From Candidatus Methanoperedenaceae archaeon (GTDB lineage Archaea; Halobacteriota; Methanosarcinia; Methanosarcinales; Methanoperedenaceae), in the NCBI GenBank assembly GCA_963753595.1, contig CAVWCX010000033.1:39360-103359 (forward strand): a stretch of 64,000 bases of DNA. Reading direction: 5' to 3'. Position numbers and translations under genes: made by a program. Below are positions 37,086 through 52,926 of the stretch, piece after piece. The first letter of the stretch is position 1. Every line of letters starts with the position of its first letter. The notes below the pieces were generated by a model. The model was given only the letters and a program-made list of their open reading frames with translations. It was not told where the DNA came from and ran no database searches.

Positions 37086-37147
37086 TTTTCATTGCCTTTT
37101 TAGATTTTTTTTTTCAATTGTATGGTTCGTTTAATAATCTATCACTA

Positions 37148-37351
37148 TTATATATTTATTTTTTTGAAGTCCTCTATATCTTTTGATAAGCGGGTAAGCT
37201 CTTCATCTGTGATAGAAATCCTGCCCTTCAATTCATGAAGTTCTTTTTCCAATTGTTTCATCCTGACAGACATCAAATAAATGAAAATAAATGCAAAAAA
37301 AAGTATTATAATTAGAGTAATTGTTAGAATTTCCATTCTATTTTCCTCCAA
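37148..37351 (-). CDS. Small membrane protein with coiled coil
   Basis: One TM followed by an amphipathic tail. Lies between minD and the ATPase gene. Confidence 0.7.
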   Translation of the reverse strand: MEENRMEILTITLIIILFFAFIFIYLMSVRMKQLEKELHELKGRISITDEELTRLSKDIEDFKKINI

Positions 37352-38126
37352 AAATAGACTTTACGAGACGATCAACGAACCCTTCCTTATCTTTTTCCAC
37401 TTTTGTTTCAATATATTTCTCTCCTGAAAGCTGGGCAGCAAGCCTCTTGTATGCTATGGATGCAGGAGAATTCGGGTATTTCACGACTATTGGCGTCTTA
37501 AAAGCAGCTGAAAGTCTTACATTTGCATCCTCTGGTATCATTTCAAGTATCTTTACACCAAGAAGTTCGGATACTTTATTTCGGTTTATTTCCGTTTTCT
37601 CAAGTGTTGAACGATTTAAAATAGCACCTTCCACACTCCTACCCAGCATTTCAGTTAGGGCTTTTGTTTTCAATGCATCCGCCATTGAAGCAAGTTCAGG
37701 ATTCACGACCAGAATAACCTGGTCTGCAACAGCAAGCGGAATGACACCGTCCCTGCTAATGCCGGCAGGAGCATCTATCAACAGGAAATCCATTCCATCA
37801 ACAAGAGTGGACATTACATCTTTCAATATATCAGGATTTGATTTCTGGAATCCTTTCAATGATAAGCCGCTGGGCACTACTTTAAGTCCGCCAGGGCCAT
37901 CATAAATAGCCTCTTTTATAGTAGCGCTTCCGCTCATTACTTCATGCAGCGTTATTTTGCTTCTTTCAAGACCGATCAAGAGACCAAGGTTTGCCATGCC
38001 GATATCGGCATCGAGGACCACTGTCTTTTTTCCCGTAAGAGCCAGAGCTGTTCCAAGATTGAGCGTGGTAGTGGTTTTTCCTGTGCCGCCCTTTCCTGAA
38101 GCTATAGTATAAACGTGTGCTGTCAT
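37338..38126 (-). CDS. minD: MinD/ParA family ATPase
   Basis: SGKGGTGKTT, DADIGMANL, IDAPAG and IPED motifs. Confidence 0.93.
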   Translation of the reverse strand: MTAHVYTIASGKGGTGKTTTTLNLGTALALTGKKTVVLDADIGMANLGLLIGLERSKITLHEVMSGSATIKEAIYDGPGGLKVVPSGLSLKGFQKSNPDILKDVMSTLVDGMDFLLIDAPAGISRDGVIPLAVADQVILVVNPELASMADALKTKALTEMLGRSVEGAILNRSTLEKTEINRNKVSELLGVKILEMIPEDANVRLSAAFKTPIVVKYPNSPASIAYKRLAAQLSGEKYIETKVEKDKEGFVDRLVKSIFGGK

Positions 38127-38244
38127 TACAATTCCTTCCAGATTTATGATATATTCATGTATATGATATACATTATAATGCTCATAAGGGGTTAATAAAC
38201 CTAACCTAGATTTATTAAAAAGTACATGATTATCCAGTTTCGCA

Positions 38245-38294
38245 CTAAGCGCAATCTTTTAACCCATTCATGATCGCCATAATCGAATCAATAT
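38245..38294 (-). pseudogene. Displaced original 3' end of the dus gene (left attachment junction)
   Basis: The minus strand reads IDSIMAIMNGLKDCA*, paralleling the current dus end IDSIMSIMQDILNNSY*. Both share GAATCAATAT. Confidence 0.8.
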
Positions 38295-38354
38295 GTTGTA
38301 AATGATGCACAATATTAAATACTATGGATGTGTATAATGGTTTAAGGTAAAATC

Positions 38355-39428
38355 ATGAAGTTAAGCAAATATCTTGAGTTTAAAGCCGCGCAAGGAATAG
38401 AGGGTGGGACACTGAATAACTACGAATATGTATTGGGATACTTGAACAAATGGAAGGATTTAGAGCAGATCACCAAAGACAACCTAATTTCTTTTTTCAA
38501 TAAGAACGAATGGAAAGAAAAAGCAGATTCTACAAAAAATTTACATGCGATCATAATAAAAACATACTTTAAGGACACTGGAAAGCTTGAGGTGGTGGAC
38601 TGGATAAAAATGAAGTCCTTAAGAGAAACAATCAGCCCAGAGCAAACATTAACCCCAGATGATATTAACAAGCTATTAGAAGTCGCAGATAACCCTTATG
38701 ATAAGGCACTTATAGCATTCCTCTATGATGCAGGATGCAGGATAAGCGAAGCACAGCGCATCAAGTGGAAAGACTTACAGGATACAACGGATGGCATTAT
38801 CGTATCTATCCCCACCAAGAAGACCTCGGCCGGCTACAGAAAGGTTATTTTGCCTTTTTCCTCCCAATACCTCAAGAACCTCAAAATTTATTCCTATGGC
38901 GAAGATAATGATTTTATTTTTAGATGGAATTATCGAGCCCATGCTCAGCGTCTCCAGAACATAAGAGAGAAATCAGGAATACAAAAGCCGTTTACCTGCC
39001 ATAAGCTGAGACATGCAGCAGCAACAGAGCTTGTATTGCAGGGAGTCCAGGAAGGAATTATTAAAAAGAAGATGGGGTGGAGTCCTTCAAGTCCGATGAT
39101 AGCCAGGTACACGCACCCCAATGATGATGCAGTGATCCAAGCAACCTTAAAAATACATGGTAAAGAACGAGATGTTAGGAAGCCTATAAACATAATCCAG
39201 CCTGAAAAACCATCGCTCACAGATGCTTATGGTCAATTTTTCAAGATTCAAGAGGAAAACCAACAAACGAAAGAACAATTAGAAAATCTAATTGTAATAA
39301 ATAAAAAACACATGAACGAGAACAGCGAGCTTAAAACACAAATGGAGAAGCAAGCGGAAGATATGGAGACCATGAAACGCCAGATGGAGCTTATCACGGC
39401 AGCAATGGCAGCGAAGCAATTATTTTAA
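38355..39428 (+). CDS. Tyrosine integrase with C-terminal coiled coil
   Basis: Catalytic set LYDAGCRISE, HKLRH, MGW and ARY. Confidence 0.93.
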   Translation: MKLSKYLEFKAAQGIEGGTLNNYEYVLGYLNKWKDLEQITKDNLISFFNKNEWKEKADSTKNLHAIIIKTYFKDTGKLEVVDWIKMKSLRETISPEQTLTPDDINKLLEVADNPYDKALIAFLYDAGCRISEAQRIKWKDLQDTTDGIIVSIPTKKTSAGYRKVILPFSSQYLKNLKIYSYGEDNDFIFRWNYRAHAQRLQNIREKSGIQKPFTCHKLRHAAATELVLQGVQEGIIKKKMGWSPSSPMIARYTHPNDDAVIQATLKIHGKERDVRKPINIIQPEKPSLTDAYGQFFKIQEENQQTKEQLENLIVINKKHMNENSELKTQMEKQAEDMETMKRQMELITAAMAAKQLF

Positions 39429-39584
39429 GATGAACTGGAATAAGTGACTAGGTTGAGAATTCAAAGGATGTGTGCAAGCCATATATTGTGTTTTCTCTGT
39501 TATAAGCTCTAATATACCTTATTTTTTCTTTCTGAACAAGCCCCCGTGTTATTGCCAGAAAAAGACGTTCATTTCATTTTTATA

Positions 39585-39608
39585 ATTAGTATAACATGTT
39601 ATACTAAT
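39585..39608. promoter_or_regulatory. Perfect 24-bp palindrome, candidate operator upstream of the RHH-to-MCM operon
   Basis: ATTAGTATAACATGTTATACTAAT is its own reverse complement. Confidence 0.6.
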
Positions 39609-39680
39609 ATAACAAATATAATTTGTTTATGCTCTTTTTATATTTGACTAAATTCCTATGTAGGCATAGGTGAATATGCC

Positions 39681-39881
39681 ATGAAACAAGTCAATATCCA
39701 AATTTCAGAAAAAACCCTAGATCGGGTCAAAAAAATTGCGAAAAATGAAGAGTTACCATATACCTCCCTTATTCGCAATTGGGTAGTACAGAAAACAAGA
39801 GAATATGCACCCGCTGAAACCCTGGCAAGAGAACCAGCGGAATGCAGCCACATCAATCAAGGAAAGATGCAGCATGAGTAA
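39681..39881 (+). CDS. Ribbon-helix-helix (CopG-like) DNA-binding protein
   Basis: MKQVNIQISEKTLDRVKKIAKNEELPYTSLIRNWV, with a GGTGA RBS. Confidence 0.8.
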   Translation: MKQVNIQISEKTLDRVKKIAKNEELPYTSLIRNWVVQKTREYAPAETLAREPAECSHINQGKMQHE

Positions 39882-40029
39882 ATACAAATCATCTTTTATT
39901 AACTTTGCTAAGACACGGATGGAAACGCAGGGTGATGAAATCCGCGAATGGGCAACGTCAGACAATCCCCTGTTATCACAAATTTGTAGGGAGGTAATGG
40001 AGGCGGCAGGGCAAGGGGAGCAAAAATGA
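39874..40029 (+). CDS. Small hypothetical protein
   Basis: MSKYKSS...WATSDNPLLSQICREVMEAA. Overlaps both neighbours. Confidence 0.55.
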   Translation: MSKYKSSFINFAKTRMETQGDEIREWATSDNPLLSQICREVMEAAGQGEQK

Positions 40030-40364
40030 AAGGGAAAGCTCCGCCCGTTACCAGCGGGCAGAACTCGAATATAGATTCTAATGTTAAGATTGTACCTTCT
40101 GCTAATAAAGACGTAAGGAGGATTTTTTTACAAGCATTGAGGACCCGGGCATATTCCAAAAATAAGATTATCCCATTCCCGGAGGTAAAACGGATTCTGT
40201 CGTGGTGGAGAGTACAAAAACAAGAACGCGACGAGCTACTTTATGATTTAAAGGATGAAGGGTTTTTGGAAATCATACCTTTTCATGGTATCAGGATAAA
40301 ACCAGCAGCCGATATAAAAAAAGCAGAGGGTGGGGAAAGGGAAGAGAAAAAGGAGGAAAGATGA
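40026..40364 (+). CDS. Hypothetical protein, possible winged helix
   Basis: Coupled ORF (ATGA overlaps) with IPFPEVKRIL...LKDEGFLEIIPFHGIRI. Confidence 0.65.
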   Translation: MKGKAPPVTSGQNSNIDSNVKIVPSANKDVRRIFLQALRTRAYSKNKIIPFPEVKRILSWWRVQKQERDELLYDLKDEGFLEIIPFHGIRIKPAADIKKAEGGEREEKKEER

Positions 40365-40729
40365 GAACAGAAAGGCTAAGGGGATTATTTTTACAATTCT
40401 TGAGGGAAAACGAGCTAGAGAATGCGCTTATATGCAATAGTTCTATCACAATCGCTCAGGACGAATCACTGAAATATGAGCGTATTGACAAATACAACGT
40501 GCTTTTTTTGACATCCGAAGATCTCAAAAAATTGCTTGCGTTCTGTGATAAGCATGGCATAAGCATATGGTTTGGCGCAGATAAGCTTTGTATCGGTTTC
40601 AATTACAAAGGAAACATGCGACTTTCAGCTTATGATTCTGTCTTGCCGGTGAGATCTGCAGCTGTTCCCAGGGAAGACAGAAAAGACGATCAACTGAGAG
40701 CGGCGTACTCAACCGCCCTTACCGTCTAG
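40361..40729 (+). CDS. Hypothetical protein
   Basis: 122-aa ORF with an AGGAGG RBS and ATGA overlap. Confidence 0.65.
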   Translation: MRTERLRGLFLQFLRENELENALICNSSITIAQDESLKYERIDKYNVLFLTSEDLKKLLAFCDKHGISIWFGADKLCIGFNYKGNMRLSAYDSVLPVRSAAVPREDRKDDQLRAAYSTALTV

Positions 40730-40746
40730 TTTTTTTATGAGGGATT

Positions 40747-41283
40747 ATGAAAAATATAATAGTTGTGATCAATGCCAGCAGCATTCTTGAAGAAATACAA
40801 GCTGGGAATGAATTTGGCCGTAGAAAGTGGGAGAACAATTGCCACAGCATAAAGGCTTCCTACAAACAGAAGACGAGCCGGATGGAAAAGAACGGCAAGG
40901 CGTATGAATATACGAAATGGTACAGGGAAAAAGATACGGGTGGGCTTGAATGTGTCGGGAAAGATGAACCGGACTGGAAGAAGATCCTTCCAAAAGAACC
41001 TGAAATGAGACAGATCGCTGCAAAGACGTATGAAGGTCATCTGATAATGGAACAGAAAGATTATGAGGCTCATATTGGCCTGTTCCTGGATTATCTTGTA
41101 TTCAGGCTTGAAGACTGCAAGAACCTGTTACATCCGCTATACAAGAATCCTGAGAAGGCACTCAAAGGCGATTCTGTCCACGGGGGTGGGGTGAGCTCGG
41201 CAGGATCGCAGAGATCCGGAGGGACAGAAAATGAAGATGACACGTACCAGGATGAGTTGGATACAGAAGAGCGATTTCTATGA
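40747..41283 (+). CDS. Hypothetical protein
   Basis: 178-aa ORF coupled to MCM, containing KNGKAYEYTKWYRE...CVGK. Confidence 0.7.
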   Translation: MKNIIVVINASSILEEIQAGNEFGRRKWENNCHSIKASYKQKTSRMEKNGKAYEYTKWYREKDTGGLECVGKDEPDWKKILPKEPEMRQIAAKTYEGHLIMEQKDYEAHIGLFLDYLVFRLEDCKNLLHPLYKNPEKALKGDSVHGGGVSSAGSQRSGGTENEDDTYQDELDTEERFL

Positions 41284-43544
41284 AGGGGAAGAAATCTGCG
41301 TTTAACGGTGAAGATAGTGTATTATATTCTCTTGGAGCAAGCGGAGTCACGGAAAAGACACTTATTGAATCGTCCCGCGCCTGGGAAAAGATAAGCACCG
41401 CGCACGACAAAAGCATTTCCACTGCTAAAAGGATGTTTTACAATGCTGTTGATAGGGAGTTTCTTTTTAAGGATAGCAGCACACCTTCATCATACGGATT
41501 CACCAAAGCGGGATATGAACGCTATCTTTTGTTAAAAAAGCGTGACAGCGTGCTTAAAGGGGCTTCACGAACATTTGAAGATTTTTTAAGGCTGTATTAT
41601 TGGGATGTTCTTTTGGATACTGTGAATAACCGCGCTAAATATTTAGAAATAAAATTTAGTGATATTGAGTTGGGGCTTGGTAATAAGTTTGCTGAGACAT
41701 TGATCGATTCCCCGGACCAAACTCTCCAGGAACTGGATAATATATTCAATGATATGGTTTTACCTACAGATGACGATTACCGCCCTTCATTGAGTATTGT
41801 TGGCCTGGGGAAAACTAACATAGTTACCGTTGAAGGTGCAAGGGACGAGAAATTATTACGAAAATTAATAGAAGTAGATGGCCGAGTGATGACGCAGTTT
41901 GAGGTAAAACCCCGGTTTATGCAAGTGGCATATCAATGCCGGCGATGCGGCCATATCACGATTGTCCCCCAGACAGCTGGGAAGATTATAGAGCCATTTG
42001 AGTGTGATAATGATGTGTGTGGACGTAGAGGGCCGTTTATTCCCGAATTCTCAGAATCTACACGGATCAACTCACAGGAAATAATTTTAGAGAACGAACG
42101 TGGGCAGGTTCATTTATCCGTTATTCTGGACGATCCTTTATGTACTTCAAATTATGAAGTTCGGGATGCTAAGCTCGTTCGTATCGTAGGGGTGTTGGAT
42201 TTTAGGAGAGTGGATACTAAAGGAGGTGTTGAGTATAATTTTGTTCTCAGGGCCAAAAGCATAAGATTGGCAGAGGATAATAATGTTGAGCCGCCCACGA
42301 CAGAAGAGATTGGGCTTTTTGAAACATGGGCAAAGAACCCGGCAGATCTCAGGGCTCGCCTTATACAAAGCGTGGCTCCCCATATACATGGTCGCGAAAC
42401 TGAAAAGGATGCTTTGTGTTTGAGCTTGTTCTCGGACTGGACATGGAAACTTCCAGCAAAAAAAATGCTAGTCAGAAGCAGCCTGCATATATTAATTATA
42501 GGTGATCCTGGAACTGCAAAATCGGAGATGTTAAAAGATCTCGCAAAGATCGCGCCCAAAGCGATCGAGGGGCAGGGAGAGAATGCTACTGGAAGGGGAT
42601 TAAGCAATTCTGCAACACAAGAGAATGGGATCTGGGTTATAAAAGCGGGCCTGTTTGCTAAAGCAGATGGTGGGATAGTTGTCCTGGATGAACTGGATAA
42701 AGTTAAAAAAGACGATCTTGTTGCTTTGAACAGCATCCTCGTTTCTCAGAAACAGATCGCGGATAAGGCGGGACTGCATGTAGAATTTGATACGCGTTGT
42801 GCGGCTGTTTGTGGTGCTAACCCCCTGAACGGCCACATTGATGAATACGAACCTATCATTAAACAATTGGGATTGAACAGCTTCCTTTTCCAAAGGTTTG
42901 ATCTCGTATTTGTAATTAGAGACAAGCCGGATACAATAGAAGATGGACTGATATATGATAAAATACATGCGGCTTGCAACAAAGCCTCCCTTGGTGATTC
43001 TGTTTTGAATCGAGTTATCCCTCTTGAACTGATTAAAAAATATATTTTATACGCACGCACAAAACCAGAACCTACCATCGCCCCTGATGCAAACGACATT
43101 TTGAAAAGTTATTATCTTAATATCAGGTTAGGGATTGGGATTAAGAAGGAAGAGATTTTAAATTACCCTGCTATATCCGCCAGGACTGCGGCTGCCCTCA
43201 ATAAACTCGCTAAAGTTATAGCACGCAGAGAACTCGCCGCCGAAGCTACTGTGGAACATGTTCAATATGCTATCTCATTATATAGAGAAAGTATCAAAAG
43301 TGTGGGTATGGGGAAAGAAGAGGATATGAATGCACTTGACCTCGGTGGGACAGGATCCCAGTATAAGAGGATCGAAGATATCAGAGGTGTGTGCATTAGG
43401 CACAAATCCGAAGGCGGGGTGACTATATCACAAATATCCAAGTGGACTGGATATCCTGAAGGCGCTGTGGCTAATATTGTTTCTCGCTGGAAAACCAGCG
43501 GAGAACTAATCGAAACAAGCCAGGATAGGTATAGAATAGTTTGA
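41280..43544 (+). CDS. mcm: Element-encoded MCM replicative helicase with N-terminal extension
   Basis: Zn finger CRRC..CDNDVC, Walker A GDPGTAKS, Walker B VVLDELDK, ANP, Arg finger QRFDL and ISART. Confidence 0.95.
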   Translation: MKGKKSAFNGEDSVLYSLGASGVTEKTLIESSRAWEKISTAHDKSISTAKRMFYNAVDREFLFKDSSTPSSYGFTKAGYERYLLLKKRDSVLKGASRTFEDFLRLYYWDVLLDTVNNRAKYLEIKFSDIELGLGNKFAETLIDSPDQTLQELDNIFNDMVLPTDDDYRPSLSIVGLGKTNIVTVEGARDEKLLRKLIEVDGRVMTQFEVKPRFMQVAYQCRRCGHITIVPQTAGKIIEPFECDNDVCGRRGPFIPEFSESTRINSQEIILENERGQVHLSVILDDPLCTSNYEVRDAKLVRIVGVLDFRRVDTKGGVEYNFVLRAKSIRLAEDNNVEPPTTEEIGLFETWAKNPADLRARLIQSVAPHIHGRETEKDALCLSLFSDWTWKLPAKKMLVRSSLHILIIGDPGTAKSEMLKDLAKIAPKAIEGQGENATGRGLSNSATQENGIWVIKAGLFAKADGGIVVLDELDKVKKDDLVALNSILVSQKQIADKAGLHVEFDTRCAAVCGANPLNGHIDEYEPIIKQLGLNSFLFQRFDLVFVIRDKPDTIEDGLIYDKIHAACNKASLGDSVLNRVIPLELIKKYILYARTKPEPTIAPDANDILKSYYLNIRLGIGIKKEEILNYPAISARTAAALNKLAKVIARRELAAEATVEHVQYAISLYRESIKSVGMGKEEDMNALDLGGTGSQYKRIEDIRGVCIRHKSEGGVTISQISKWTGYPEGAVANIVSRWKTSGELIETSQDRYRIV

Positions 43545-43687
43545 TAGATATTGATTTATTAAAAATCGTTATCTAATAACTTTTTATTTATATAAATATA
43601 TAATATGTGTTTTGATTTTCGTTTGTTTTTAATTTTTCGCTATGCATAGAGCTTAAAAACTGTTTTGTTGAGATTACACAATACCGT

Positions 43688-43834
43688 TATCTATGAACTT
43701 AAAACAGTCTGAAGATGTGAGATTGATAAAAACCGATATCTATAAACTTAAAACAGTCTATCGATGTGAGATTGATAAAAACCGATATCTATAAACTTAA
43801 AACAGTCTATCGATGTGAGATTGATAAAAACCAT
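43688..43834. repeat. Three 49-bp tandem repeats (iteron-like, candidate origin)
   Basis: Unit TATCTATAAACTTAAAACAGTCTATCGATGTGAGATTGATAAAAACCGA starts at 43688, 43737 and 43786. Degenerate copies and AT-rich DNA flank it. Confidence 0.9.
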
Positions 43835-44365
43835 TATCCTTTAACTCGAAAAAAAATAAGATGAGATTAGATGATATTGATGATAACAGCTATCTATAGA
43901 CTGAAATTACCGCACTGTGTAAAAAAAACCGAAATCATTTTTGTTTTTCAATCTTTTAGAAATCTAAAATTTCAAAAACAACTCCACCCCCCTAAAAACA
44001 CACAAAACATCAAAAAGCAGATGTAGTAGGTAATATCACACAAATAGACAGAATGAGATTGATGAGATTAACCCATCGCTAAATATTGATATTTTACAGT
44101 TCGCTATACAGCGGGTTTTTTTGTAAGAAATCAATAACAGGTTATAGTATCAAGTTTAATCCCATACCAATAGGCTGTTTAATGTTTACTGATAATTGTA
44201 TTTAAGAATATCACTTTAAAGAACACTCTCTGTATGATAAGATCGCATGGACAGAAAAATATCCCGTTCTTATTCATGTCATTGTTCATGAACAATAACT
44301 ATAAATATAATAACATCATAATAGATGTTTGCCTTCCTCGGAGGGTATTAAAGGAGTAATAAAAA

Positions 44366-44800
44366 TTGGTAGAATCTAAAAGACAAAAAATCGAAAAGTT
44401 GTTGACTGAGGGCAAAAGCCCAGAAGATATCGCAAAAGAAACAGACTGCACGGTGAGATATGCCTATGAGATCAAGGCATTGAATGAGCAACCCAAACCC
44501 AATGAGCCGACTGTAAAAAATCATCTTGTTGGAATCGAAGGTACTTTAAAGAAACTTTCCGGTGATATTAATCTAATACGGAAATTTGAGCAAGATCCGA
44601 TAATAGTCTGCCCATGCTGCAATGATCCGATAGATCTATCAATTGCAGTGATCTGTGAAGAGTGTAGGGTTCTGCTTTGTATAGGCTGCATTGAGAATCA
44701 TAAGCAGCCCGATACTGCAAGTACTTGGAATCCATTTGAAGATAAATCGTTATGTCAAAAATTCCAAGAACAAATACAGTCAACAATAAGAGGGAAATGA
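44366..44800 (+). CDS. HTH plus zinc-finger protein
   Basis: N-terminal LLTEGKSPEDIAKETDCTVRYAY HTH and CPCC..CEEC...CIGC..H. A 16-bp palindrome ATTGTTCATGAACAAT lies at 44281-44296. Confidence 0.75.
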   Translation: MVESKRQKIEKLLTEGKSPEDIAKETDCTVRYAYEIKALNEQPKPNEPTVKNHLVGIEGTLKKLSGDINLIRKFEQDPIIVCPCCNDPIDLSIAVICEECRVLLCIGCIENHKQPDTASTWNPFEDKSLCQKFQEQIQSTIRGK

Positions 44801-44801
44801 A

Positions 44802-44972
44802 TTGAAGATAGAAATGCATGATGCTTTTAGGCCAATACTCGAATCGATGATTGACGGTGTAGGGATAAAGAGTATTTCTGAAGCTCTAAACCTGCATCTT
44901 TTAAGGACCTTGAAGTCTGTAAAATCAAAGAGAATACAGCAGAAAATAGGAGCTAAAGCAGAACCAACATAA
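44802..44972 (+). CDS. Possible small RHH-like protein (absent from the ORF track)
   Basis: TTG start directly after the previous stop: LKIEMHDAFRPILESMIDGVGIKSISEALNLHLLRTLK... Confidence 0.4.
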   Translation: MKIEMHDAFRPILESMIDGVGIKSISEALNLHLLRTLKSVKSKRIQQKIGAKAEPT

Positions 44973-45340
44973 TCGAAGACTAATGCACCATCTTATAAAT
45001 ATTTGAGGTACTAAATTATATTGAATTCAGCACTATATCATGATTCAATTTTTAAGGGGGTATGGGTTTTTCTCCCTCTCTTTTTTTTGATTATGCTATT
45101 TGCCTTCAAAAATTCATTAAATTTGGTATAGTTGGCCTCTTTACCTATCACTATCGGTTGCCTCAAACCATTTGGTATTCAACCTTTAAAAAATAAGATT
45201 TGGTGTATGCATATAGAATGGTTCCGGTATGGCTTGCGTATAACGATTTAGAAAAAGTAAGCTTACTTTATCCCATAGAGCTGGTATAGGTTGCCAATAG
45301 CGAAAAGCATTTGAGAGGAAATGACAGTTAATAAATAAAT

Positions 45341-47191
45341 ATGAAAGAAAGATCACAGCAAATAGATGAAGTGGATGAGGCTATCATTAAGTGTATCCAA
45401 GCACAGCCTCAGAAACTAAATGATATCATTACAATCACCAGATTAAATTATGAAACGGGGAGAAAACGATTAGAAAAACTGAAAAGGTACGGCCACATCG
45501 CAAGCCCTAATTTTGGCTTTTATGCGATCACAAAACCAGGCTTAAATCTGCTAGAAGTCAGATCGCAAGGAGTGGTTACTCCCGATCTCAGAGATGATAA
45601 GATCGAAGAACTAATCAAGCTTCTGCCCACAGCACCACACCAGGCATTTTTTAGGCTGCTTGTAAGTGGAATTATAGCTAAATATTGCTTATTTGATCAT
45701 TTCAACGATGGCTATCCTTCTTTCATTATCGGAGGTAAAACAAAAGCCTTCAAGACATCAATAGCGAAGCTGATATGCCTTTTATTTGGGTTCGATAATG
45801 GCCTTATACATAAGTTGTTCTCTGCTACTGCTGGTGAGTTTGGGATAAGGAGAGTATCGGCAGGAAATGGACAATTCAGACCTGGAGCATCACAGTATTT
45901 CAATGAGCCTTTCATATGTCTGGATGAGCTTGATAAGACCACATCAAACGATCTGAAAAGGGTATTGCTGAATTATGCAGATGGCGCCAGAGAGTTTCCT
46001 ATCGAGGGCGAACAGGTCATTAATCATTGCACCACATTGATCACGCTAAACACTAACGGTGATGTGGATGCAATAAAGTCTTTGGGAATCCACGAGGCTT
46101 ACATTAGAAGGTCCGTTGTTTTGAACACAGAGCAGCTACTTGGTCAGTTAAAGGATGTTGATCTTATGGCAAAGGCTGTATTCGATTATATGAACACAAA
46201 GACCGCGCCCAGGATAAGATTGGAGACATTAAACTCACGCCTTACCAGATTATCAGAATCCGATTATATGCTTATGCGAAGCCTATTGATGGGGAATATC
46301 GCAGAAGGATATGAGAATCTTGTTGATACGCAGCCCCTGGAGCTGCTTAGCCTGGGTAGAGCTGTGTTGTTAAAAGGGGACATTCGAGAAGCGATATTTC
46401 AGACAACTTATGATAGGTTGTGCTGCCTTGAAACCCTGGGAATACCAAAAGAGGGGTGGCGTAAGAGGATGCAGGTTGAATGGGCGAAGTATCGAGCTAT
46501 TGAGCAGCCCGGCATCATGGAGAAGCTGAACGAGGCTTCGATAAAAGAGGCAGAGAGGGCAACAACCTTAGAGGAAAGAAGAGCAGAACTTCAAAAACAA
46601 AGGGAAGAAAAGACAAATGAAAGACTTGAATTTATAGCGAAAAGGGAGAAGGTAGCTGGCAGGCTAGGAGAAGCAATAGAAGGTTTAAAAACAATCTCAA
46701 AGAATCAATCGTTTGAGCCTCAAGCAAAAACACTTCTAGAGCAGTCCAGATATCTTAGGAGCAGGATTGAAAAGGCAAACAATCAGGAAGAGTTTATGAC
46801 TTATGTTAGACCTTTCAATGATCTTTGGGCAAGAGGAAAGGAAATACTTAATAGCTACAATTCCCGGGATACAAGTCAGAAAATCAAAGATGCCTCAGAA
46901 ACCGATGGAAGGCCCCTTGAATTCTATTACGGTCAAATTAACCGCCCCACCCCTTTTGAAGTCAGCGAAGGCAATCATAAAAATGCTAATGGGTGGCGTA
47001 TAAAGTTTAATTCACAAATACTGGAAATAATCAAAGGCAGTCAACGCTGGGCATTTCTAGCAGAGACAGGATCCTTTAAACTGGGGACTAAGTATGCCTT
47101 ACACATAACGTCAATAGTCCGCAGTCCAGATCCACGAATCATCTTAGAAGTTGGAGATGCCAAAGATCAGTCAGAAGCAGCCATGATATAA
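45341..47191 (+). CDS. Winged-helix plus P-loop (AAA+-like) ATPase plus coiled-coil protein
   Basis: N-terminal wHTH (RLEKLKRYGHI...YAITKPG), deviant Walker A GGKTKAFKTS, Walker B ICLDELDK, sensor-like ITLNT and YIRRS. Confidence 0.8.
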   Translation: MKERSQQIDEVDEAIIKCIQAQPQKLNDIITITRLNYETGRKRLEKLKRYGHIASPNFGFYAITKPGLNLLEVRSQGVVTPDLRDDKIEELIKLLPTAPHQAFFRLLVSGIIAKYCLFDHFNDGYPSFIIGGKTKAFKTSIAKLICLLFGFDNGLIHKLFSATAGEFGIRRVSAGNGQFRPGASQYFNEPFICLDELDKTTSNDLKRVLLNYADGAREFPIEGEQVINHCTTLITLNTNGDVDAIKSLGIHEAYIRRSVVLNTEQLLGQLKDVDLMAKAVFDYMNTKTAPRIRLETLNSRLTRLSESDYMLMRSLLMGNIAEGYENLVDTQPLELLSLGRAVLLKGDIREAIFQTTYDRLCCLETLGIPKEGWRKRMQVEWAKYRAIEQPGIMEKLNEASIKEAERATTLEERRAELQKQREEKTNERLEFIAKREKVAGRLGEAIEGLKTISKNQSFEPQAKTLLEQSRYLRSRIEKANNQEEFMTYVRPFNDLWARGKEILNSYNSRDTSQKIKDASETDGRPLEFYYGQINRPTPFEVSEGNHKNANGWRIKFNSQILEIIKGSQRWAFLAETGSFKLGTKYALHITSIVRSPDPRIILEVGDAKDQSEAAMI

Positions 47192-47240
47192 ATTCTGTCT
47201 AGGTCCCGATCACAGGCCTGGCCTGCCTGGGGGACTGAAA

Positions 47241-47378
47241 TCAATGGGATTTTATTAATATACCATCATCAGCTTCTATGATTTCAACGTAATCCTTAAG
47301 ATGATATTTTCCCCTCAATTCTTTCGGTATTGTTAACCTTCCCTCTTCCGTGATTGGTCTTATGATCTTTTCTGCCAT
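47241..47378 (-). CDS. AbrB/MazE/SpoVT-family DNA-binding protein, 45 aa (absent from the ORF track)
   Basis: MAEKIIRPITEEGRLTIPKELRGKYHLKDYVEIIEADDGILIKSH. Confidence 0.85.
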   Translation of the reverse strand: MAEKIIRPITEEGRLTIPKELRGKYHLKDYVEIIEADDGILIKSH

Positions 47379-47473
47379 ATCTCGTTATAGTGAATGTTAT
47401 AGGCAATAAGCCTTTTTGTCAAATTGACGAAAACCTTTTTATAGACATATAGCCATATCGTCTAATAGGCGAA

Positions 47474-47761
47474 ATGCCTTTAGGTGAAAATATGGAAATA
47501 AACACAAACGATAAACGCGAAATGGATGAGTTGGTATCAATAGAAATCAAAATATCACGGAGACAAGCTGAACTTATGGCTCTTTATTCTAAAATTGCTC
47601 GGAAAACTCCGGATCGACTATATCATCGCATTATGTCAAAAGGAATCGCTGAGATTATCGGGGCAATAAAAGCATTACCATTTAGTAACATCGATGCGTT
47701 CAAAGAGGTCATGACCGGAATTCCTGAACACTACCCAACCCTAGATGAGGAATCTAAATGA
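47474..47761 (+). CDS. Hypothetical protein, possibly RHH-like
   Basis: ORF abutting the second recombinase. AGGTGA RBS precedes an internal ATG. Confidence 0.6.
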   Translation: MPLGENMEINTNDKREMDELVSIEIKISRRQAELMALYSKIARKTPDRLYHRIMSKGIAEIIGAIKALPFSNIDAFKEVMTGIPEHYPTLDEESK

Positions 47762-48945
47762 TTATAGGCCAGGACATTAAAGATTTCTCGGAAGATTGCA
47801 GGTCAAGGGGATTAACACAACATACTATAGCGACTTATAAATCAAACGTCGCTACTTTCCTTAATTATGTAGACAATCCCCTGAATGTTGATATTTCTAC
47901 TCTCCGCAAATTTCTGGACCATCTCAAAGAAATGGAGTTCAAAAGAGGTAAGAGCATTAAAAAAGGGGTTCATCCTAAAACAATCAAGGCTTATTTTTCA
48001 GCCATTAGCACTTATTATGATTTTCTTGTTTTTAATCGGCAGCTCGAGATTAGCCCCATCCCATCATTTACCAAGCGATATTTATCCAGGATAAAACAGC
48101 AATATAATGGAGAGAATACCAGGCAGCTCATCACCATCGATCAGATGAAACAGCTCATCAACCTTGATATGCCCATTCAGGATAGAGCGATCCTGATGGT
48201 CCTGGTAAAGACAGGGATCAGAAGAGGTGAATTACTCTCCATTGATTCAGGCGATCTAAACCTTGAGAAAAAAGAAATCATTCTCAAACCCAAAGCAAAA
48301 AGAACAAATCGGTTAGTTATTTTTGATGATGAAACCGCCCGGGTTTTGCAGTTGTTTCTTGATTGGAGAAAAACCAGGACAAAAACCGATGCACTCTTTA
48401 TTTCACCCCTTGGTTTAAGATTGAATAAGGAGGTCCCCAATGAGATCTTAGCCAGGCATGGCAGCATATTAGGCTTACATGATCCAAATGGCGCCCTTAA
48501 TCAGAAATTAACACCACACTGCATGAGACACAGCTTTACAACATATTTAAGACGTGAAGGAATGCCAAGGGAGATGATCCAGGAACTCAGAGGAGACCGG
48601 CGCAAGGATGCAATAGATATCTATGACCACATTGACCTATCAGAGTTAAAGGATCGTTATTTTAAATGCATTCCCCGGCTTTTGAATACAGAACCAAAGC
48701 TTCATGCACATGATTTGGATCCACAGAAGACTAGAAGCCAGAATCTAGGGGGACATCCAAAGGAGGCAACCCAAAACAGAACAAAAGCAATCCTCTCTTT
48801 ATTGGACACTGAAAGATTAACAATCGGTCAAATTGCCAAGATTTTGAAAGAAAAGAATACTCTGGTTAAAAAAGCAGTATATAGAAACTTGAAAAATGGA
48901 AATATCCAGAAAGATGATTTAGGCAGATATTATAAAAAAAGGTAA
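47758..48945 (+). CDS. Second tyrosine recombinase (RGD variant) with C-terminal HTH
   Basis: KTGIRRGEL, TPHCMRH and LRGD..DIYDH, plus C-terminal LTIGQIAKIL...VKKAVYR. Confidence 0.93.
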   Translation: MIIGQDIKDFSEDCRSRGLTQHTIATYKSNVATFLNYVDNPLNVDISTLRKFLDHLKEMEFKRGKSIKKGVHPKTIKAYFSAISTYYDFLVFNRQLEISPIPSFTKRYLSRIKQQYNGENTRQLITIDQMKQLINLDMPIQDRAILMVLVKTGIRRGELLSIDSGDLNLEKKEIILKPKAKRTNRLVIFDDETARVLQLFLDWRKTRTKTDALFISPLGLRLNKEVPNEILARHGSILGLHDPNGALNQKLTPHCMRHSFTTYLRREGMPREMIQELRGDRRKDAIDIYDHIDLSELKDRYFKCIPRLLNTEPKLHAHDLDPQKTRSQNLGGHPKEATQNRTKAILSLLDTERLTIGQIAKILKEKNTLVKKAVYRNLKNGNIQKDDLGRYYKKR

Positions 48946-48999
48946 AAAGGTAGAGGTCAGATAGCAGCCAAAGCTTCATAAAATGAGTTAGAATCGCAA

Positions 49000-49150
49000 G
49001 GACAGAAAAGAGGGGGAGGGGGTTTTCTGTCCTCTCCTTCAGCAGAGATCTCCCAGATATCGTGAATTTTACAGGACAGAAAAGTTATGATCTGGTTTCT
49101 GTCTACCCTGTTAACTGTTAAGCTGGCCAAGGATCGTTGGGGGATAGAAA
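49000..49150. repeat. GGACAGAA/TTCTGTCC motif array 0
   Basis: GGACAGAAAA at 49000 and 49074, TTTTCTGTCC ending 49032, TTTCTGTCT ending 49104, and GGATAGAAAA at 49142. Confidence 0.75.
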
Positions 49151-49274
49151 AGAGGAGTGGATAATCCTTGTTTTATTAAACCACAAGTGCGATATTAAAA
49201 CCCCCTCAGGACGCAATATTAGGCAGATCGCACATAGAATAGGTTATAAGTTTACATAACATATTATGCTAATT

Positions 49275-49418
49275 ATGAGTGAAAAAACTGCTGTTAAACA
49301 ACCTAAGAAGATCGGAGGGAGTCTTATGCTGGCCTTGACTGGATATGTCAGGACAGACCAGTTTTACAAAGTCGAGTGCTCTGATAAGAAAATTATCATT
49401 TCCCCCATAGAACTCTAA
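49275..49418 (+). CDS. Small AbrB-like protein, 47 aa (absent from the ORF track)
   Basis: MSEKTAVKQPKKIGGSLMLALTGYVRTDQFYKVECSDKKIIISPIEL. KIGGS and KKIII match the AbrB domain at 50154-50441. Confidence 0.65.
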   Translation: MSEKTAVKQPKKIGGSLMLALTGYVRTDQFYKVECSDKKIIISPIEL

Positions 49419-49447
49419 AATACTGTTCGTATTGTTACGATTGTTTT

Positions 49448-49480
49448 AAACCCTTCTCAGGATGCGATATGAGGCACGAT
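49448..49480 (+). repeat. 33-bp direct repeat, copy 1
   Basis: AAACCCTTCTCAGGATGCGATATGAGGCACGAT, identical at 50693-50725. A degenerate copy lies at ~49198-49228. Confidence 0.92.
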
Positions 49481-49520
49481 TTTTGCACCCATGGGAACAT
49501 ATAAAAATATTATACTGCTT

Positions 49521-49704
49521 TTCTGTCCTTCCGGAGATCTCTGCAGCTGATATCCTGGAGGACAGAAATTTTATGATTTTAATTTCCTGTCCTGAGCATT
49601 CCGGGATATCCAGCAGGATCTCGGAAAGGCCCGGCGGACAGAATAGTCTATTTAATATTCTGTCCTTCCTGGCAAGAGCAGCTGGGATCAGGACCCGGAC
49701 AGAA
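49521..49704. repeat. TTCTGTCC-N-GGACAGAA array 1 (three units)
   Basis: GC-rich spacers of 31, 43 and 31 bp, separated by AT-rich linkers. Confidence 0.88.
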
Positions 49705-49911
49705 ACAAATAATACATGATGCAACTCCTTTTATTTATATAGCAAACCTTTATTTTAATTTAAGAGGCACAAACTAAAGAGGGGTGGAGTGATCCATCCT
49801 GTGATATTTCCAGTTTTCGGCAAGCATAGGACAGAAAACGCCATAACCAATCGTCATGGATAAGTTTTATATCTATTCAGTATATATTAAGTATATACAG
49901 AGGTTAAAACC

Positions 49912-50157
49912 TTGCAGGACATCCACAGACTCCCCATTCATTTCAAGAAACATGCCGCATTGAGGCTTTTGCAGAGATTTGAGTTAAGCCTGGACGAAGT
50001 AAAGCACTGTATCAGGACAGCAAAAATCATCAAAGCGGTTGAAAAAGAGGGGAACACAGGGATCATGCAAAGTTGCCTCGGAGACTCGAAAATAAAATTC
50101 GTATTCACGATAAGAGAAAAAGCATTATGGATAATAACAGTGGAGGAATGCAAATGA
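49912..50157 (+). CDS. Putative toxin, DUF4258/RelE-like
   Basis: IHFKKHAALRLLQR..SLDEV...IKFVF......WIITV pattern. Overlaps the antitoxin start. Confidence 0.75.
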   Translation: MQDIHRLPIHFKKHAALRLLQRFELSLDEVKHCIRTAKIIKAVEKEGNTGIMQSCLGDSKIKFVFTIREKALWIITVEECK

Positions 50158-50441
50158 GTAAATGCCCTATATGCAGCACGCCCATGCACAAAGAACAAAG
50201 AGAGATCCAGAAAGGTATCTTTGCCCAGGTTGAAGTTTGCCCTAAATGTGAAGATGAGTGGATCGATGAAAAAGAGTATGAAACTTTATATCAACTGTTC
50301 ACTCGAAAAACATTCAAGATAGGTGGCAGCATTGCAGTCAGGATCCCAAAAGAGCTTGCAACCCTCATAGGATTGAAAGAAGGCAGTGAAGTTAAGGTAG
50401 CTGTCAAGGATAAGAAATTAGTGATAGAGCCAGCAACATAA
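50154..50441 (+). CDS. Putative antitoxin: YgiT/MqsA-type zinc finger fused to an AbrB/MazE domain
   Basis: MSKCPIC...VCPKCEDEW followed by FKIGGSIAVRIPKELA..IGLKEGSEV. Confidence 0.82.
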   Translation: MSKCPICSTPMHKEQREIQKGIFAQVEVCPKCEDEWIDEKEYETLYQLFTRKTFKIGGSIAVRIPKELATLIGLKEGSEVKVAVKDKKLVIEPAT

Positions 50442-50444
50442 GTA

Positions 50445-50609
50445 TTCTGTCCCTCCTGGTCTGTGAGATCTATGGCGCCATGTGGACAGAATCATTAATT
50501 TGATTTATGTCCTGATCCGGATCTAAGATCTCAGCTGCAGCACGGACAGAAATTAAATTATTTTCTGTCTTCCCGGGGAGATCCTGCAGATCTTCCGGCA
50601 TGGACAGAA
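50445..50609. repeat. TTCTGTCC-N31-GGACAGAA array 2 (three units)
   Basis: Spacers 50453-50483, 50513-50543 and 50571-50601 are all exactly 31 bp. Confidence 0.9.
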
Positions 50610-50692
50610 AAAGAATAATACATAAGGCAAAGCATTTTTTTAAAAATATTGGGGTGTCAGTATTTTAATAAAAAACATGCAGCAACGGTTTA

Positions 50693-50725
50693 AAACCCTT
50701 CTCAGGATGCGATATGAGGCACGAT
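50693..50725 (+). repeat. 33-bp direct repeat, copy 2
   Basis: Identical to 49448-49480. Confidence 0.92.
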
Positions 50726-51051
50726 CTATATGATGGTAAGGTAGTTTGTAGCTACATAATAGAGGGAAAAACCCGGATCTAGGAAAGAGTTGACAATTTC
50801 TTCTTAGATATGGCCGGATTTCTCAGACTAGGCCAGCCCGGAGGATCCGCGAAGATCCGGGAAAGTTGGTCTAGGTAATTTTTACTGGTTTGTATTCATG
50901 CGAACTATCCAGAACATATAAAACTAATTTATATTTTTACAAAGTAAACTCATGGTTTTAGTTATATAATAGTGAATGGATATTTAAAACAAGGATTTAT
51001 AGTGCTTCGATTGCATTTCACCATAAAATAAACAATTTTGCATAATCGTTA

Positions 51052-52017
51052 TCAATAGGAATTATTTAAAATATCCTGCATTATAGACATGATAGAATCA
51101 ATATCATGGGTCTTGTTTATTTTCACACGAACCTGTTTTACATTTTCCATACCTTTTGTGAACCATTGGGCATTGCGCTTCAGATCATTGAAGGTAAGCA
51201 TAGAAAAATTGCAGCATAGTTCTGTGTACTCAAAAAAATCAGCCAATCTTTCTCGTTGATCCTGGGAAGGCAATATTTCCCCGGTTTTCAGGAAATAAGA
51301 GATCTTCTTAAAAATAAACGGATTGCCTATCGCTGCCCGCCCGATCATAAGCCCGTCGCACCCGGTATATTCAAGCACTTTTTGCGAGGTTTTTTCATCA
51401 GATATATCCCCGTTCGCTACGACCGGGATAGATACCTCACTTTTAATGCCTTTGATGGAAACAAGATCGGATTTCCCCGAATAACCCTGCTTTTGCGTCC
51501 TGCCATGGACTGTAATCGCATCAGCACCAGCTTTTTCGATAATTTTTGCGATTTTTAATGTTTCATCAAAGTTATCTAATATTCTTATTTTAGCTGTGAG
51601 CGGTACATCCAGGGAATCCGAAAGAGTTTGTATGATATCCCCTATTAGTTCAGGTTTTTTTAATAGTTCTGATCCGCATCCGTTTTTTATAACGCCCTGT
51701 GCCGGACAGCCAAAATTTATGTCAATGAGTTGTGGCCCGTATTTATCCTGCAAAAATATCGCGGATGCAGCAAGATTTGCTGGAACCGAACCCATTAATT
51801 GAATTCCCATTGGTCTTTCATCCGCACAGGTAAATCCCCTTTCTATGCTTTTGCGGCTTTGCCTCACTACCGCTTCAGAAGATGTCATCTCGGAATAAAC
51901 TAAAGATGAACCGTACTTCCTGCATAGCAGCCTGGATGGGAGGTTAGTAACACCTGACATCGGCGCAAGAACCAGATTTCCGTCAAGTTTCAATTTTCCA
52001 ATGGTCAAAGAACTCAT
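51052..52017 (-). CDS. dusB: tRNA-dihydrouridine synthase (DusB/Nifr3 type); last ~14 codons appear element-supplied
   Basis: LAPMSGVT, DINFGCP, GSELL, TVHGRT, ANGDI and MIGRAAIGNP motifs. Confidence 0.95.
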   Translation of the reverse strand: MSSLTIGKLKLDGNLVLAPMSGVTNLPSRLLCRKYGSSLVYSEMTSSEAVVRQSRKSIERGFTCADERPMGIQLMGSVPANLAASAIFLQDKYGPQLIDINFGCPAQGVIKNGCGSELLKKPELIGDIIQTLSDSLDVPLTAKIRILDNFDETLKIAKIIEKAGADAITVHGRTQKQGYSGKSDLVSIKGIKSEVSIPVVANGDISDEKTSQKVLEYTGCDGLMIGRAAIGNPFIFKKISYFLKTGEILPSQDQRERLADFFEYTELCCNFSMLTFNDLKRNAQWFTKGMENVKQVRVKINKTHDIDSIMSIMQDILNNSY

Positions 52018-52080
52018 ACGTTTTTCAATCCATCATACAGGGATTTCCACATAAATACATACCCACCATATTTCAAAATC

Positions 52081-52127
52081 TTTAAATATAATGAACATAA
52101 TTGTACATCAATGTACTAAAATGTACA
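52081..52127 (+). promoter_or_regulatory. TATA box and three TRP-box-like sites upstream of trpCBA
   Basis: TTTAAATA at 52081, then TGTACA (52102), TGTACT (52112) and TGTACA (52122) at 10-bp spacing. TGTACA is the TrpY box known from Methanothermobacter. Confidence 0.8.
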
Positions 52128-52152
52128 ATTTGAACGGATATGCTTATTAGAA

Positions 52153-52926
52153 ATGTTACTTATGCACCAGATAATCGATGAAATAATTGCATCAACAAGA
52201 AACAGGAGCCCTCCTGCTTCAAATACGATGAGAATAAACCCAAGAGATTTCAAGAAGAGCATCAGGGAAAAAAAACAACAAGATCTCATTCCGGTGATAT
52301 CAGAAGTAAAACCATCATCTCCTACCCGCTTTATCAGGAATGTTACACCTCTTGAAGCAGCCGGGATTGCAACTCAGATGGAATCTGCCGGCGCAGCAGC
52401 GATATCGGTACTTACAGAGCCGGATTTCTTTAAAGGCAGTATCCAGAACCTGATATCTGTCAGGGAGAATGTTAAAATACCGGTACTGAGAAAAGATTTT
52501 ATTATTAATAAGAACCAGATCCATGAAGTCGAAAGCGATTTGATCCTTTTGATCGCAGGAATTTTGTGCGATGAACTGGATGATTTCGTAAATGAAGCAA
52601 TATCCTCAGGCAGGGAGCCTCTTGTTGAAGTGCATAACAGTGGTGAACTTGAAAATGCACTCACAACGCGGGCAAATATGATCGGGATCAATAACAGGAA
52701 TCTTACTACGATGAAAGTTGATATTACAACGACAGAAGACCTTGCGCCTCTTATCAGTAACAGGATGATAATAAGTGAAAGCGGGATATCATCACCAGAT
52801 GATGCAGTCCGCATGATAGACGCGGGCGCTGATGCTATACTTGTCGGTACATCCATCATGCTGGGAAATGTTTACGAAAAGACTTACGAATTAGTACATG
52901 CATTGAACACTAAAAAGGATCATTGA
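52153..52926 (+). CDS. trpC: Indole-3-glycerol phosphate synthase
   Basis: ISEVKPSSP, ISVLTEP.FF.GS, LRKDF, GINNRNL and SESGI motifs. Confidence 0.96.
   Translation: MLLMHQIIDEIIASTRNRSPPASNTMRINPRDFKKSIREKKQQDLIPVISEVKPSSPTRFIRNVTPLEAAGIATQMESAGAAAISVLTEPDFFKGSIQNLISVRENVKIPVLRKDFIINKNQIHEVESDLILLIAGILCDELDDFVNEAISSGREPLVEVHNSGELENALTTRANMIGINNRNLTTMKVDITTTEDLAPLISNRMIISESGISSPDDAVRMIDAGADAILVGTSIMLGNVYEKTYELVHALNTKKDH

Follow-up and report, generated by a model that had tools for sequence, protein, structure and literature searches.

The 64,000-nucleotide window analysed here, a stretch of a metagenome-assembled genome (MAG) of Candidatus Methanoperedenaceae archaeon (Methanosarcinales; probably Candidatus Methanoperedens), very probably contains a cryptic, plasmid-like integrative element of approximately 12.8 kb, inserted site-specifically in the 3′ end of dus, the gene for a tRNA-dihydrouridine synthase. 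The borders of the insertion are defined to the base, its site is empty in relatives, the integrase gene at one end of the element, int1, is intact, and the junction with dus recurs on metagenome contigs that encode a closely related integrase.

The insertion site in dus

The element is bracketed by a 10-bp direct repeat, GAATCAATAT, of which the window contains two exact copies, at 38285–38294 and 51095–51104, with a spacing of 12,810 bp and 12,800 bp of element DNA (Table 1). Natural empty sites read GATTCTAT, and the window relic reads GATTCGAT at the same place; the identity between attB and attP is therefore not 10 nt but 13 nt, ATATTGATTCTAT in the sense of dus, at 51092–51104. This core falls on the conserved DIDS motif of the protein, and is found exactly in the dus genes of 5 of 27 relatives and at 12 or more of its 13 positions in 14 of the 27. 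An exact search of the window thus bore out an initial annotation, made from the sequence alone, which had reported a core duplicated 12,810 bp apart.

The dus loci of these 27 relatives (L002–L028) were compared with that of the window's own genome, G000. In the closest relative, G004, the Dus protein of which is 87–88% identical to that of the window, dus ends in ...IDSIMAIMNGLKDCV and a stop, and a MinD/ParA gene, 93.5% identical to window positions 37338–38126, begins within approximately 120 nt downstream. Joining window positions 51095–51400 to 38284–37990 yields a sequence collinear with G004 across dus, the spacer and minD. The gene downstream of dus differs in the other 25 relatives, so that dus–minD synteny is a local trait of the G000/G004 lineage.

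For four public runs (X1–X4), Logan contigs were aligned to positions 37000–52500. X1, X3 and X4, runs that come from three studies, each have a single contig with a joint from 38281 to 51092, which skips 12,810 nt; in these contigs the relic is continuous with dus. The joint contig of X1 is 596 nt long, with 12 differences; in this run, both flanks are covered at approximately 98% identity, with zero depth over 38551–50958. X1 therefore represents what is essentially the same species, in a strain that lacks the element. The initial annotation had called for a relative in which a dus ending near ...IMNGLKDCA lies beside minD, and for an empty attB; the former was found in G004, with an end of the form ...IMNGLKDC[AV] and a stop, the latter in the contigs of X1, X3 and X4. 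The features by which archaeal integrated mobile genetic elements are recognised are all present: a short direct repeat bounding the element, an integrase gene within it, and a close relative whose site is empty. This agrees with the integrative element that had been proposed for the dus 3′ end.

Two other arrangements were considered at this site. No third copy of the core in the same orientation is present inside the element, where matches with two mismatches are at chance level (seven or more in 44 of 100 shuffles), and tandem or composite integration at a single att site was rejected on this ground. A tRNA gene as the target was also rejected, with no tRNA genes in the window; at the loci of integrase homologues, a tRNA gene is found in only 2 of 18.

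The chimeric dus gene

The live dus open reading frame (ORF), at 51052–52017 on the minus strand, encodes 321 residues and ends in ...HDIDSIMSIMQDILNNSY and a stop. Its product carries the Dus domain along its full length (PF01207, E 1e-75, residues 17–307) and is a tRNA-dihydrouridine synthase; PDB chain 1vhn aligns with residues 11–312, and the score against the NCBIfam DusB model, 291.8 bits, falls just below the cut-off of 293.3. The last 13 codons and the TGA stop are element-derived, and the reconstituted target retains an intact 321-aa frame for the predicted Dus. To the left of the left core, the minus strand encodes (H)IDSIMAIMNGLKDCA and a stop. The reading of 38245–38284 as the original dus end, made in the initial annotation, is upheld by its collinearity with G004 and its contiguity with dus in the X1, X3 and X4 contigs, and the element was also correctly taken to provide a replacement C terminus, which amounts to the last 13 codons and the stop.

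In the 16 bases that follow the core, the relic and the live tail agree at 11. Only five codons can be compared between the two, with two silent changes and one replacement. In the 27 relatives, the tails after IDSxxxxM vary freely in sequence and by up to approximately 20 residues in length. The silent differences had been read as implying selection on the element to restore Dus; given five comparable codons, and tails that vary in the genus, such selection is not demonstrable. In the surrogate end the reading frame is kept, as are the residues IMxIM and a stop close by; restoration of Dus by this end is plausible, not demonstrated.

The natural dus tail of another relative, G008, is ...IIGILKDILRS (IDSIIGILKDILRS) and the element tail is IDSIMSIMQDILNNSY, each followed by a stop; both are of the K/Q-D-I-L type, with moderate similarity at the DNA level. 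Because the Q-D-I-L tail of the element resembles the natural K-D-I-L tail of G008, the comparison suggests that the surrogate tail may have been captured from the dus 3′ end of another lineage.

In the X1 strain, the relic-type stop of dus is itself changed (38246 T>G on the plus strand), which would lengthen Dus by a few residues; the extreme C terminus of Dus therefore varies even within the species.

Int1 and the recurrence of the dus junction

The candidate dus-specific recombinase, Int1, is a member of the tyrosine recombinase superfamily, with a Phage_integrase domain (PF00589, E 1.4e-23, 84 bits against a cut-off of 27.1) and the R-K-H-R-[H/W]-Y residues. These are R129, K156, H216, R219, W242 and Y252, all invariant across 30 homologues, to which catalytic roles are presumed from the order of the motifs. 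The gene is intact and starts 60 nt downstream of the core.

Of 49 genomes of the genus, 39 encode tyrosine recombinases that match Int1 at E 1e-10 or better, and integrases P0002–P0009 are 75–89% identical to Int1. Two metagenome contigs, L070 and L071, encode an integrase with 90% identity. Upstream of this gene, they share the same element-side sequence as far as ...ATAT, with GTTGT at the junction, followed by the relic IDSILGVMRGLDDSASGSLPVDSYCPEE and a stop, a dus tail of the type seen in other species of the genus (compare G017). Both the host context, with an IS-like transposase and an M20 peptidase, and the cargo differ from those of the window. Integrases of the closest clade have therefore inserted at the 3′ end of dus in no fewer than two hosts, and targeting of this end recurs, in part. 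The integrases with 73–78% identity sit in hsdR, not in dus.

At positions 2304–3911 of L071, a 535-aa transposase-like ORF lies beside this second dus-tail relic, and that host locus has therefore been rearranged. In G023, an integrase lies 24 kb from dus on one contig; tblastn returned only int1 and dus there, and a relic was not found. Near the integrases with 60% identity (L074–L076), the upstream ORFs were not recognised by eye, and no search was made.

A sibling element that splits hsdR

The G004 integrase (also L073), 73% identical to Int1, and the L072 integrase, 78% identical, adjoin a fragment of hsdR, which encodes the type I restriction R subunit. In G004, a 21.4-kb segment (G004:C36, approximately 74745–96168; L061, L089) with the 11-bp repeat TATTGATGATA at both ends splits this gene. 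The N-terminal part, with an HSDR_N domain, ends ...KKLAAYHQY+HTYIA and a stop, and the C-terminal part restarts at YHQYYAVNKAV, placing the split at the Y-H-Q-Y codons. The hsdR target is not restored by this sibling element.

Across approximately 330 nt, a gap-free alignment can be made of the reconstructed attP sites of the window element and its G004 sibling. The arms are conserved, two direct repeats occupy the same position in both, and the central stretch of approximately 25 nt has diverged. The comparison looks like a retargeting of the core on a shared attP scaffold. In the lambdoid phages lambda and HK022, related integrases with conserved arms and a changed core act at different chromosomal sites; the dus and hsdR elements parallel this pair, with the differences that the hosts are archaeal, the targets are coding sequences and the parallel is drawn from sequence.

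Gene content of the element

The features of the element and its surroundings are listed in Table 1. All of its large ORFs are intact. Small ORFs are found downstream of int1, at 39681–40364; between int1 and the MCM gene come the weakly CopG/ribbon–helix–helix (RHH)-like ORF and four small ORFs without a recognised family. The RHH/CopG-like protein, 81% identical in an element of the genome G046, is a possible regulator or excision factor. The MCM helicase scores 313.9 bits against the NCBIfam MCM model, below its cut-off of 940. A 144-aa protein belongs to no known family, and the 616-aa protein has no Pfam, NCBIfam or PHROG family, with weak Atlas leads (scores of at most 0.84). Int2 is XerA-like, and with 151.7 bits against NF040815 (cut-off 220) falls short of an archaeal XerA. 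The toxin–antitoxin cassette is 98% identical in G046 and 80% identical in G021, where it is inverted, and stands in other contexts.

No structural or transfer genes were recognised among the element ORFs with Pfam and PHROGs, the latter returning no family for the 10 unassigned ORFs, and Rfam gave no match over 37000–52500 at E values up to 0.1. By its gene content, the element fits an MCM-type cryptic integrated element, in effect what would be an integrated plasmid. In the host DNA beyond the left border, an 818-aa PilB3-like type IV secretion/pilus ATPase (34629–37085) adjoins the MinD/ParA gene.

Table 1 Features of the integrated element and the dus locus (window coordinates)
Feature	Coordinates	Strand	Evidence
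Host MinD/ParA-family P-loop ATPase, original downstream neighbour of dus	37338..38126	-	Pfam CbiA/ParA/AAA_31
Relic of the original dus 3′ end, IMAIMNGLKDCA and stop, host DNA	38245..38284	-	Translation; collinear with G004 dus end
Core copy, integrase-proximal junction (attR-type)	38282..38294	.	10 nt exact; 13-nt core with 1 mismatch
Integrated element, approximately 12.8 kb between cores	38295..51091	.	Absent from G004 and X1 contigs
attP P′ arm and integrase promoter region	38295..38354	+	Conserved with G004 and L070 elements
int1, tyrosine integrase, 357 aa, candidate dus-specific recombinase	38355..39428	+	PF00589
Small RHH/CopG-like protein	39681..39881	+	Weak Pfam CopG_antitoxin match, E 2.2e-5, below cut-off
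MCM-family replicative helicase with C-terminal helix–turn–helix	41280..43544	+	Pfam MCM 3.6e-48, MCM_lid, MCM_OB
Five iterons of approximately 35 nt, 49-nt period; putative replication origin	43669..43906	.	
616-aa protein, P-loop-like motif read by eye	45341..47191	+	89% identical in G046 element
int2, XerA-like tyrosine recombinase with C-terminal extension	47758..48945	+	PF00589 and SAM-like domains
Cluster of palindromic units TTCTGTCY-N-RGACAGAA, 47–57 nt	49025..50609	.	7 in window against 0 in shuffles
DUF4258 / MazE(AbrB)-zinc-ribbon pair, putative toxin–antitoxin cassette, palindromic units at borders	49912..50441	+	
attP P arm	50905..51091	.	Conserved with G004 element, for example TATAGTGCTTCGATTGCAT
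Element-supplied replacement dus end, IMSIMQDILNNSY and stop	51052..51094	-	
Chimeric live dus, 321 aa: host codons 1–308 and element codons 309–321	51052..52017	-	
Core copy, dus-proximal junction (attL-type), 13-nt form	51092..51104	.	

Proposed mechanism and alternative explanations

In the proposed mechanism, Int1 would recombine attP with the host attB through the central 13 nt, which correspond to codons D-I-D-S-I of dus, the final motif in this gene that is well conserved. Integration would sever the original 12 codons and their stop, leaving them as the relic beside the MinD/ParA gene, and would fuse the 13 codons and stop borne by the element to dus, so that an intact 321-aa ORF persists; the chimeric Dus is predicted to work. 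The free element would replicate by means of the MCM helicase and the iteron origin, a module that presumably drives its replication, and would be stabilised by the toxin–antitoxin pair. Because of its position and the parallel in L070/L071, Int1, rather than Int2, is the probable catalyst of the reaction. The element probably still excises.

Several observations weigh against this account. The 10-mer is weak by itself, with two or more matches in 12 of 100 shuffles, and the relic core copy at 38282–38294 has one mismatch to the 13-nt core. The element has a second recombinase, Int2, and no excisionase was identified among its ORFs. The joint of 38281 to 51092 was not found in X2, the fourth run compared; the empty-site contigs come from other samples and record a presence/absence polymorphism, not excision; and no circular attP joint was seen among the contigs of X1–X4, with no run containing the source population (best share of words 0.14). 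Stretches of the element that these runs leave uncovered carry no weight either way. Most relatives of Int1 do not sit at dus: 29 further integrase loci from the genus (L032–L060) all lack a dus tail within 1.5 kb. Of the integrase homologues that the initial annotation had proposed to check for a place next to dus, the 90% identical one of L070/L071 lies beside a dus-tail relic. The dus junction pattern was found in only 1 of 284 genomes of the order, that of the window itself, and L070 and L071, which are identical in the stretch shown, count as one instance, with the dus-proximal end lying off the contigs. If the repeat were due to chance, the segment would be a non-site-specific rearrangement or an assembly chimera, to which the recurrence of the 10-mer in shuffles and the state of the genome, a MAG of 37 contigs, lend something; this is scarcely credible, since the borders agree base for base with the unoccupied sites in G004 and in three environmental contigs, on which ground a chance repeat was rejected, and since the same junction recurs elsewhere with a 90% identical integrase. 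It is the locus of the relative, the joined flanks and the environmental contigs, not the 10-mer, that set an insertion above chance. A decaying, immobile remnant, by now a fixed genomic island, is unlikely: the mismatch in the relic core, the lack of an attP joint in the four runs, the failure to recognise excisionase, capsid or transfer genes and the repeat clutter at 49.0–50.7 kb are in keeping with decay, whereas the large ORFs are all intact, the catalytic residues of the integrase are present, the 10-nt identity is kept perfectly at both ends, and a strain of approximately 98% identity is without the element, from which a recent insertion follows.

A provirus, for example one like the pleolipoviruses, in place of a plasmid-like element is a rather improbable alternative. 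The integrases nearest to Int1 in the phage and virus collection belong to Archaeoglobi pleomorphic viruses (25–26% identity over 91–98% of the query), the record of such a virus is similar in size to the element, and the Atlas leads of the 616-aa protein point to viral clusters; however, the 10 unassigned ORFs contain no VP3-like, VP4-like or other PHROG family, viral_contigs yielded neither a relative in an integrase-alignment search (0 among 92 candidate stretches) nor a match to the dus junction pattern, and the replication module consists of MCM and iterons where the pleolipovirus record has Rep. The balance is even on what the likeness of the two dus tails signifies. It could equally well reflect history or a constraint of DNA recognition, that is, a captured dus end or a core-type half-site of the integrase, and not selection on the element. 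The natural G008 tail of the same type, the paucity of comparable codons, the variation of tails among the relatives, the altered stop in X1 and the unrestored hsdR of the G004 sibling all favour such an origin; retention of the frame, IMxIM and a nearby stop is what a restoring end would also display, and capture and selection are compatible with each other.

Comparison with known systems

Archaeal att sites within protein genes have been reviewed (PMC8371274), and elements in the 3′-distal portions of protein genes with a reconstituted frame have already been described in Thaumarchaeota; the present case extends a known pattern. Of 68 thaumarchaeal elements, 14 lie in such regions; in one of them the att measures 13 bp and the new stop comes from the element, and NitGar-E6 and NitEve-E3 are MCM-encoding cryptic integrated elements (Krupovic et al. 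2019, PMC6563490). NitEve-E2 and others of that set resemble the window element in having a tyrosine integrase, an att of approximately 13 bp at the 3′ end of a protein gene and an ORF reconstituted with a new stop, and some of these elements likewise rely on MCM for replication; those cases, too, were verified through a close relative with an empty site (PMC6563490). They differ in belonging to another phylum and in the extent of replacement, 8 nt there and 13 codons here, and in that the window element is matched by a further, independent junction whose integrase is 90% identical; dus is not among the targets named in the main text of that study (PMC6563490). The novelty that the initial annotation implied for 3′-end targeting in archaea was overstated, as reconstituted ORFs of this kind are in print (PMC6563490). 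In literature covered mostly through open-access articles without their supplements, no archaeal dus-targeting integrase and no such integrative elements of Methanoperedens were found.

In bacteria, the dusA-associated integrases form a family whose islands vary in cargo, have the integrase in common and share a target at the dusA 5′ end (Farrugia et al. 2015, PMC4482086), and a section heading of the same article states that integration may restore DusA function. Common to these islands and the window element are the tyrosine integrase and a target within a tRNA-dihydrouridine synthase gene (PMC4482086). In the window, a DusB-like archaeal dus is entered 13 codons short of its stop, which places the insertion outside the definition of dusA-associated islands by the dusA 5′ end. 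The shared use of dus looks like convergence; a gene known in bacteria as an island hotspot at its 5′ end thus serves archaeal elements at its 3′ end as well.

Among non-suicidal archaeal integrases of catalogued viruses, the SNJ2-type and Archaeoglobi pleomorphic virus integrases (BK065156.1, BK065158.1) are the nearest by sequence, at the 25–26% identity given above. The SNJ2-type integrase acts on a tRNA-Met gene through a 14-bp core and requires Orf2 and Orf3, two small accessory proteins with which it is co-transcribed (Wang et al. 2018, PMC5861418). As in the window, the integrase of these viruses stands at the end of the element beside att, followed by small ORFs; the window element differs in its target, a protein gene, and in having no recognised pleolipovirus structural genes. 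In the SSV-type ('suicidal') integrases, attP lies within the integrase gene, which is split on integration (PMC7253208); int1, in contrast, is intact at 357 aa, with the core outside the gene.

For a Methanoperedens-type archaeon, from a group that lacks a genetic system, the element provides an intact integrase together with an attB/attP pair defined to the base. Int1 is accordingly a candidate integration tool, for which the 13-nt target is available in exact (5/27) or near-exact (14/27) form in the dus genes of the relatives. The sibling that splits hsdR, together with the palindromic units that bound modules, gives testable leads on the retargeting and reshuffling of archaeal elements.

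Palindromic units and possible module exchange

Seven palindromic units of the form TTCTGTCY-N31(-42)-RGACAGAA, most of them exactly 47 nt long, are located at 40636–40682, 41172–41229, 49025–49081, 49521–49567, 49658–49704, 50445–50491 and 50563–50609, with a degenerate unit at 47193–47239. All seven units of the 2.89-Mb genome lie inside the element. Across the genus, 12 of 49 genomes carry such units, which in each genome cluster on no more than two contigs (also L058, L090–L094). The interiors (n = 44) have no extra fold stability (mean z −0.27) and are enriched approximately 4-fold in hexamer palindromes (91 against 22.6 ± 4.6 in shuffles), among them AGATCT, CTGCAG, CAGCTG and GGCGCC, which resemble restriction sites.

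In G046, the same modules are rearranged beside other integrases, with an MCM only 36% identical to that of the window, and two blocks of homology with G046 end at units, at 41232 and 47239. The units stand at the edges of gene modules that have been shuffled among related elements. The leading guess is that they act as recombination sites at module boundaries. A long-hairpin or attC model was rejected for the interiors, which lack extra fold stability. The attC consensus is an imperfect palindrome with R′′/R′ ends RYYYAAC/GTTRRRY; the ends TTCTGTCY/RGACAGAA of the units are not of this type. Int2 is also not of the IntI type, scoring 35.9 bits against TIGR02249 (cut-off 265), over the C-terminal 47 residues only. 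Of the 49 genomes, 14 encode an Int2 homologue, and among these are 7 of the 12 genomes with palindromic units; in G017, which has 10 units, none was found at E 1e-40 or better. With co-occurrence only partial, Int2 as an obligate partner of the units was rejected.

Taken together, the attP comparison and the units permit a tentative joint reading, doubtful as it stands, of a Methanoperedens element lineage with a conserved Int/attP scaffold, the cores of which would be rewritten to match host-gene codons and the modules of which would be swapped at the 47-nt units. One branch might copy dus and bear a surrogate end, so that the gene survives; the sibling at 73–78% identity might copy the Y-H-Q-Y codons of hsdR, splitting the gene and perhaps disarming a host defence. 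Replication, integrase and toxin–antitoxin modules would then be exchanged at TTCTGTCY-N31-RGACAGAA, conceivably a previously undescribed boundary site.

The region around the toxin–antitoxin cassette has further features. Between palindromic units, at 49266–49418, a 50-aa ORF contains an AbrB/SpoVT-like stretch, KIGGSLMLALTG, read by eye, and is possibly an antitoxin-like cassette on its own. The toxin–antitoxin region is flanked by two copies of a 38-nt direct repeat (49443–49480 and 50688–50725; 97% identity), with a weaker copy at 49192–49229. Compared with G046, the window has 290 extra nucleotides (50537–50826), which hold one copy of the 38-nt repeat, and contigs of other metagenomes break at 49443/49479.

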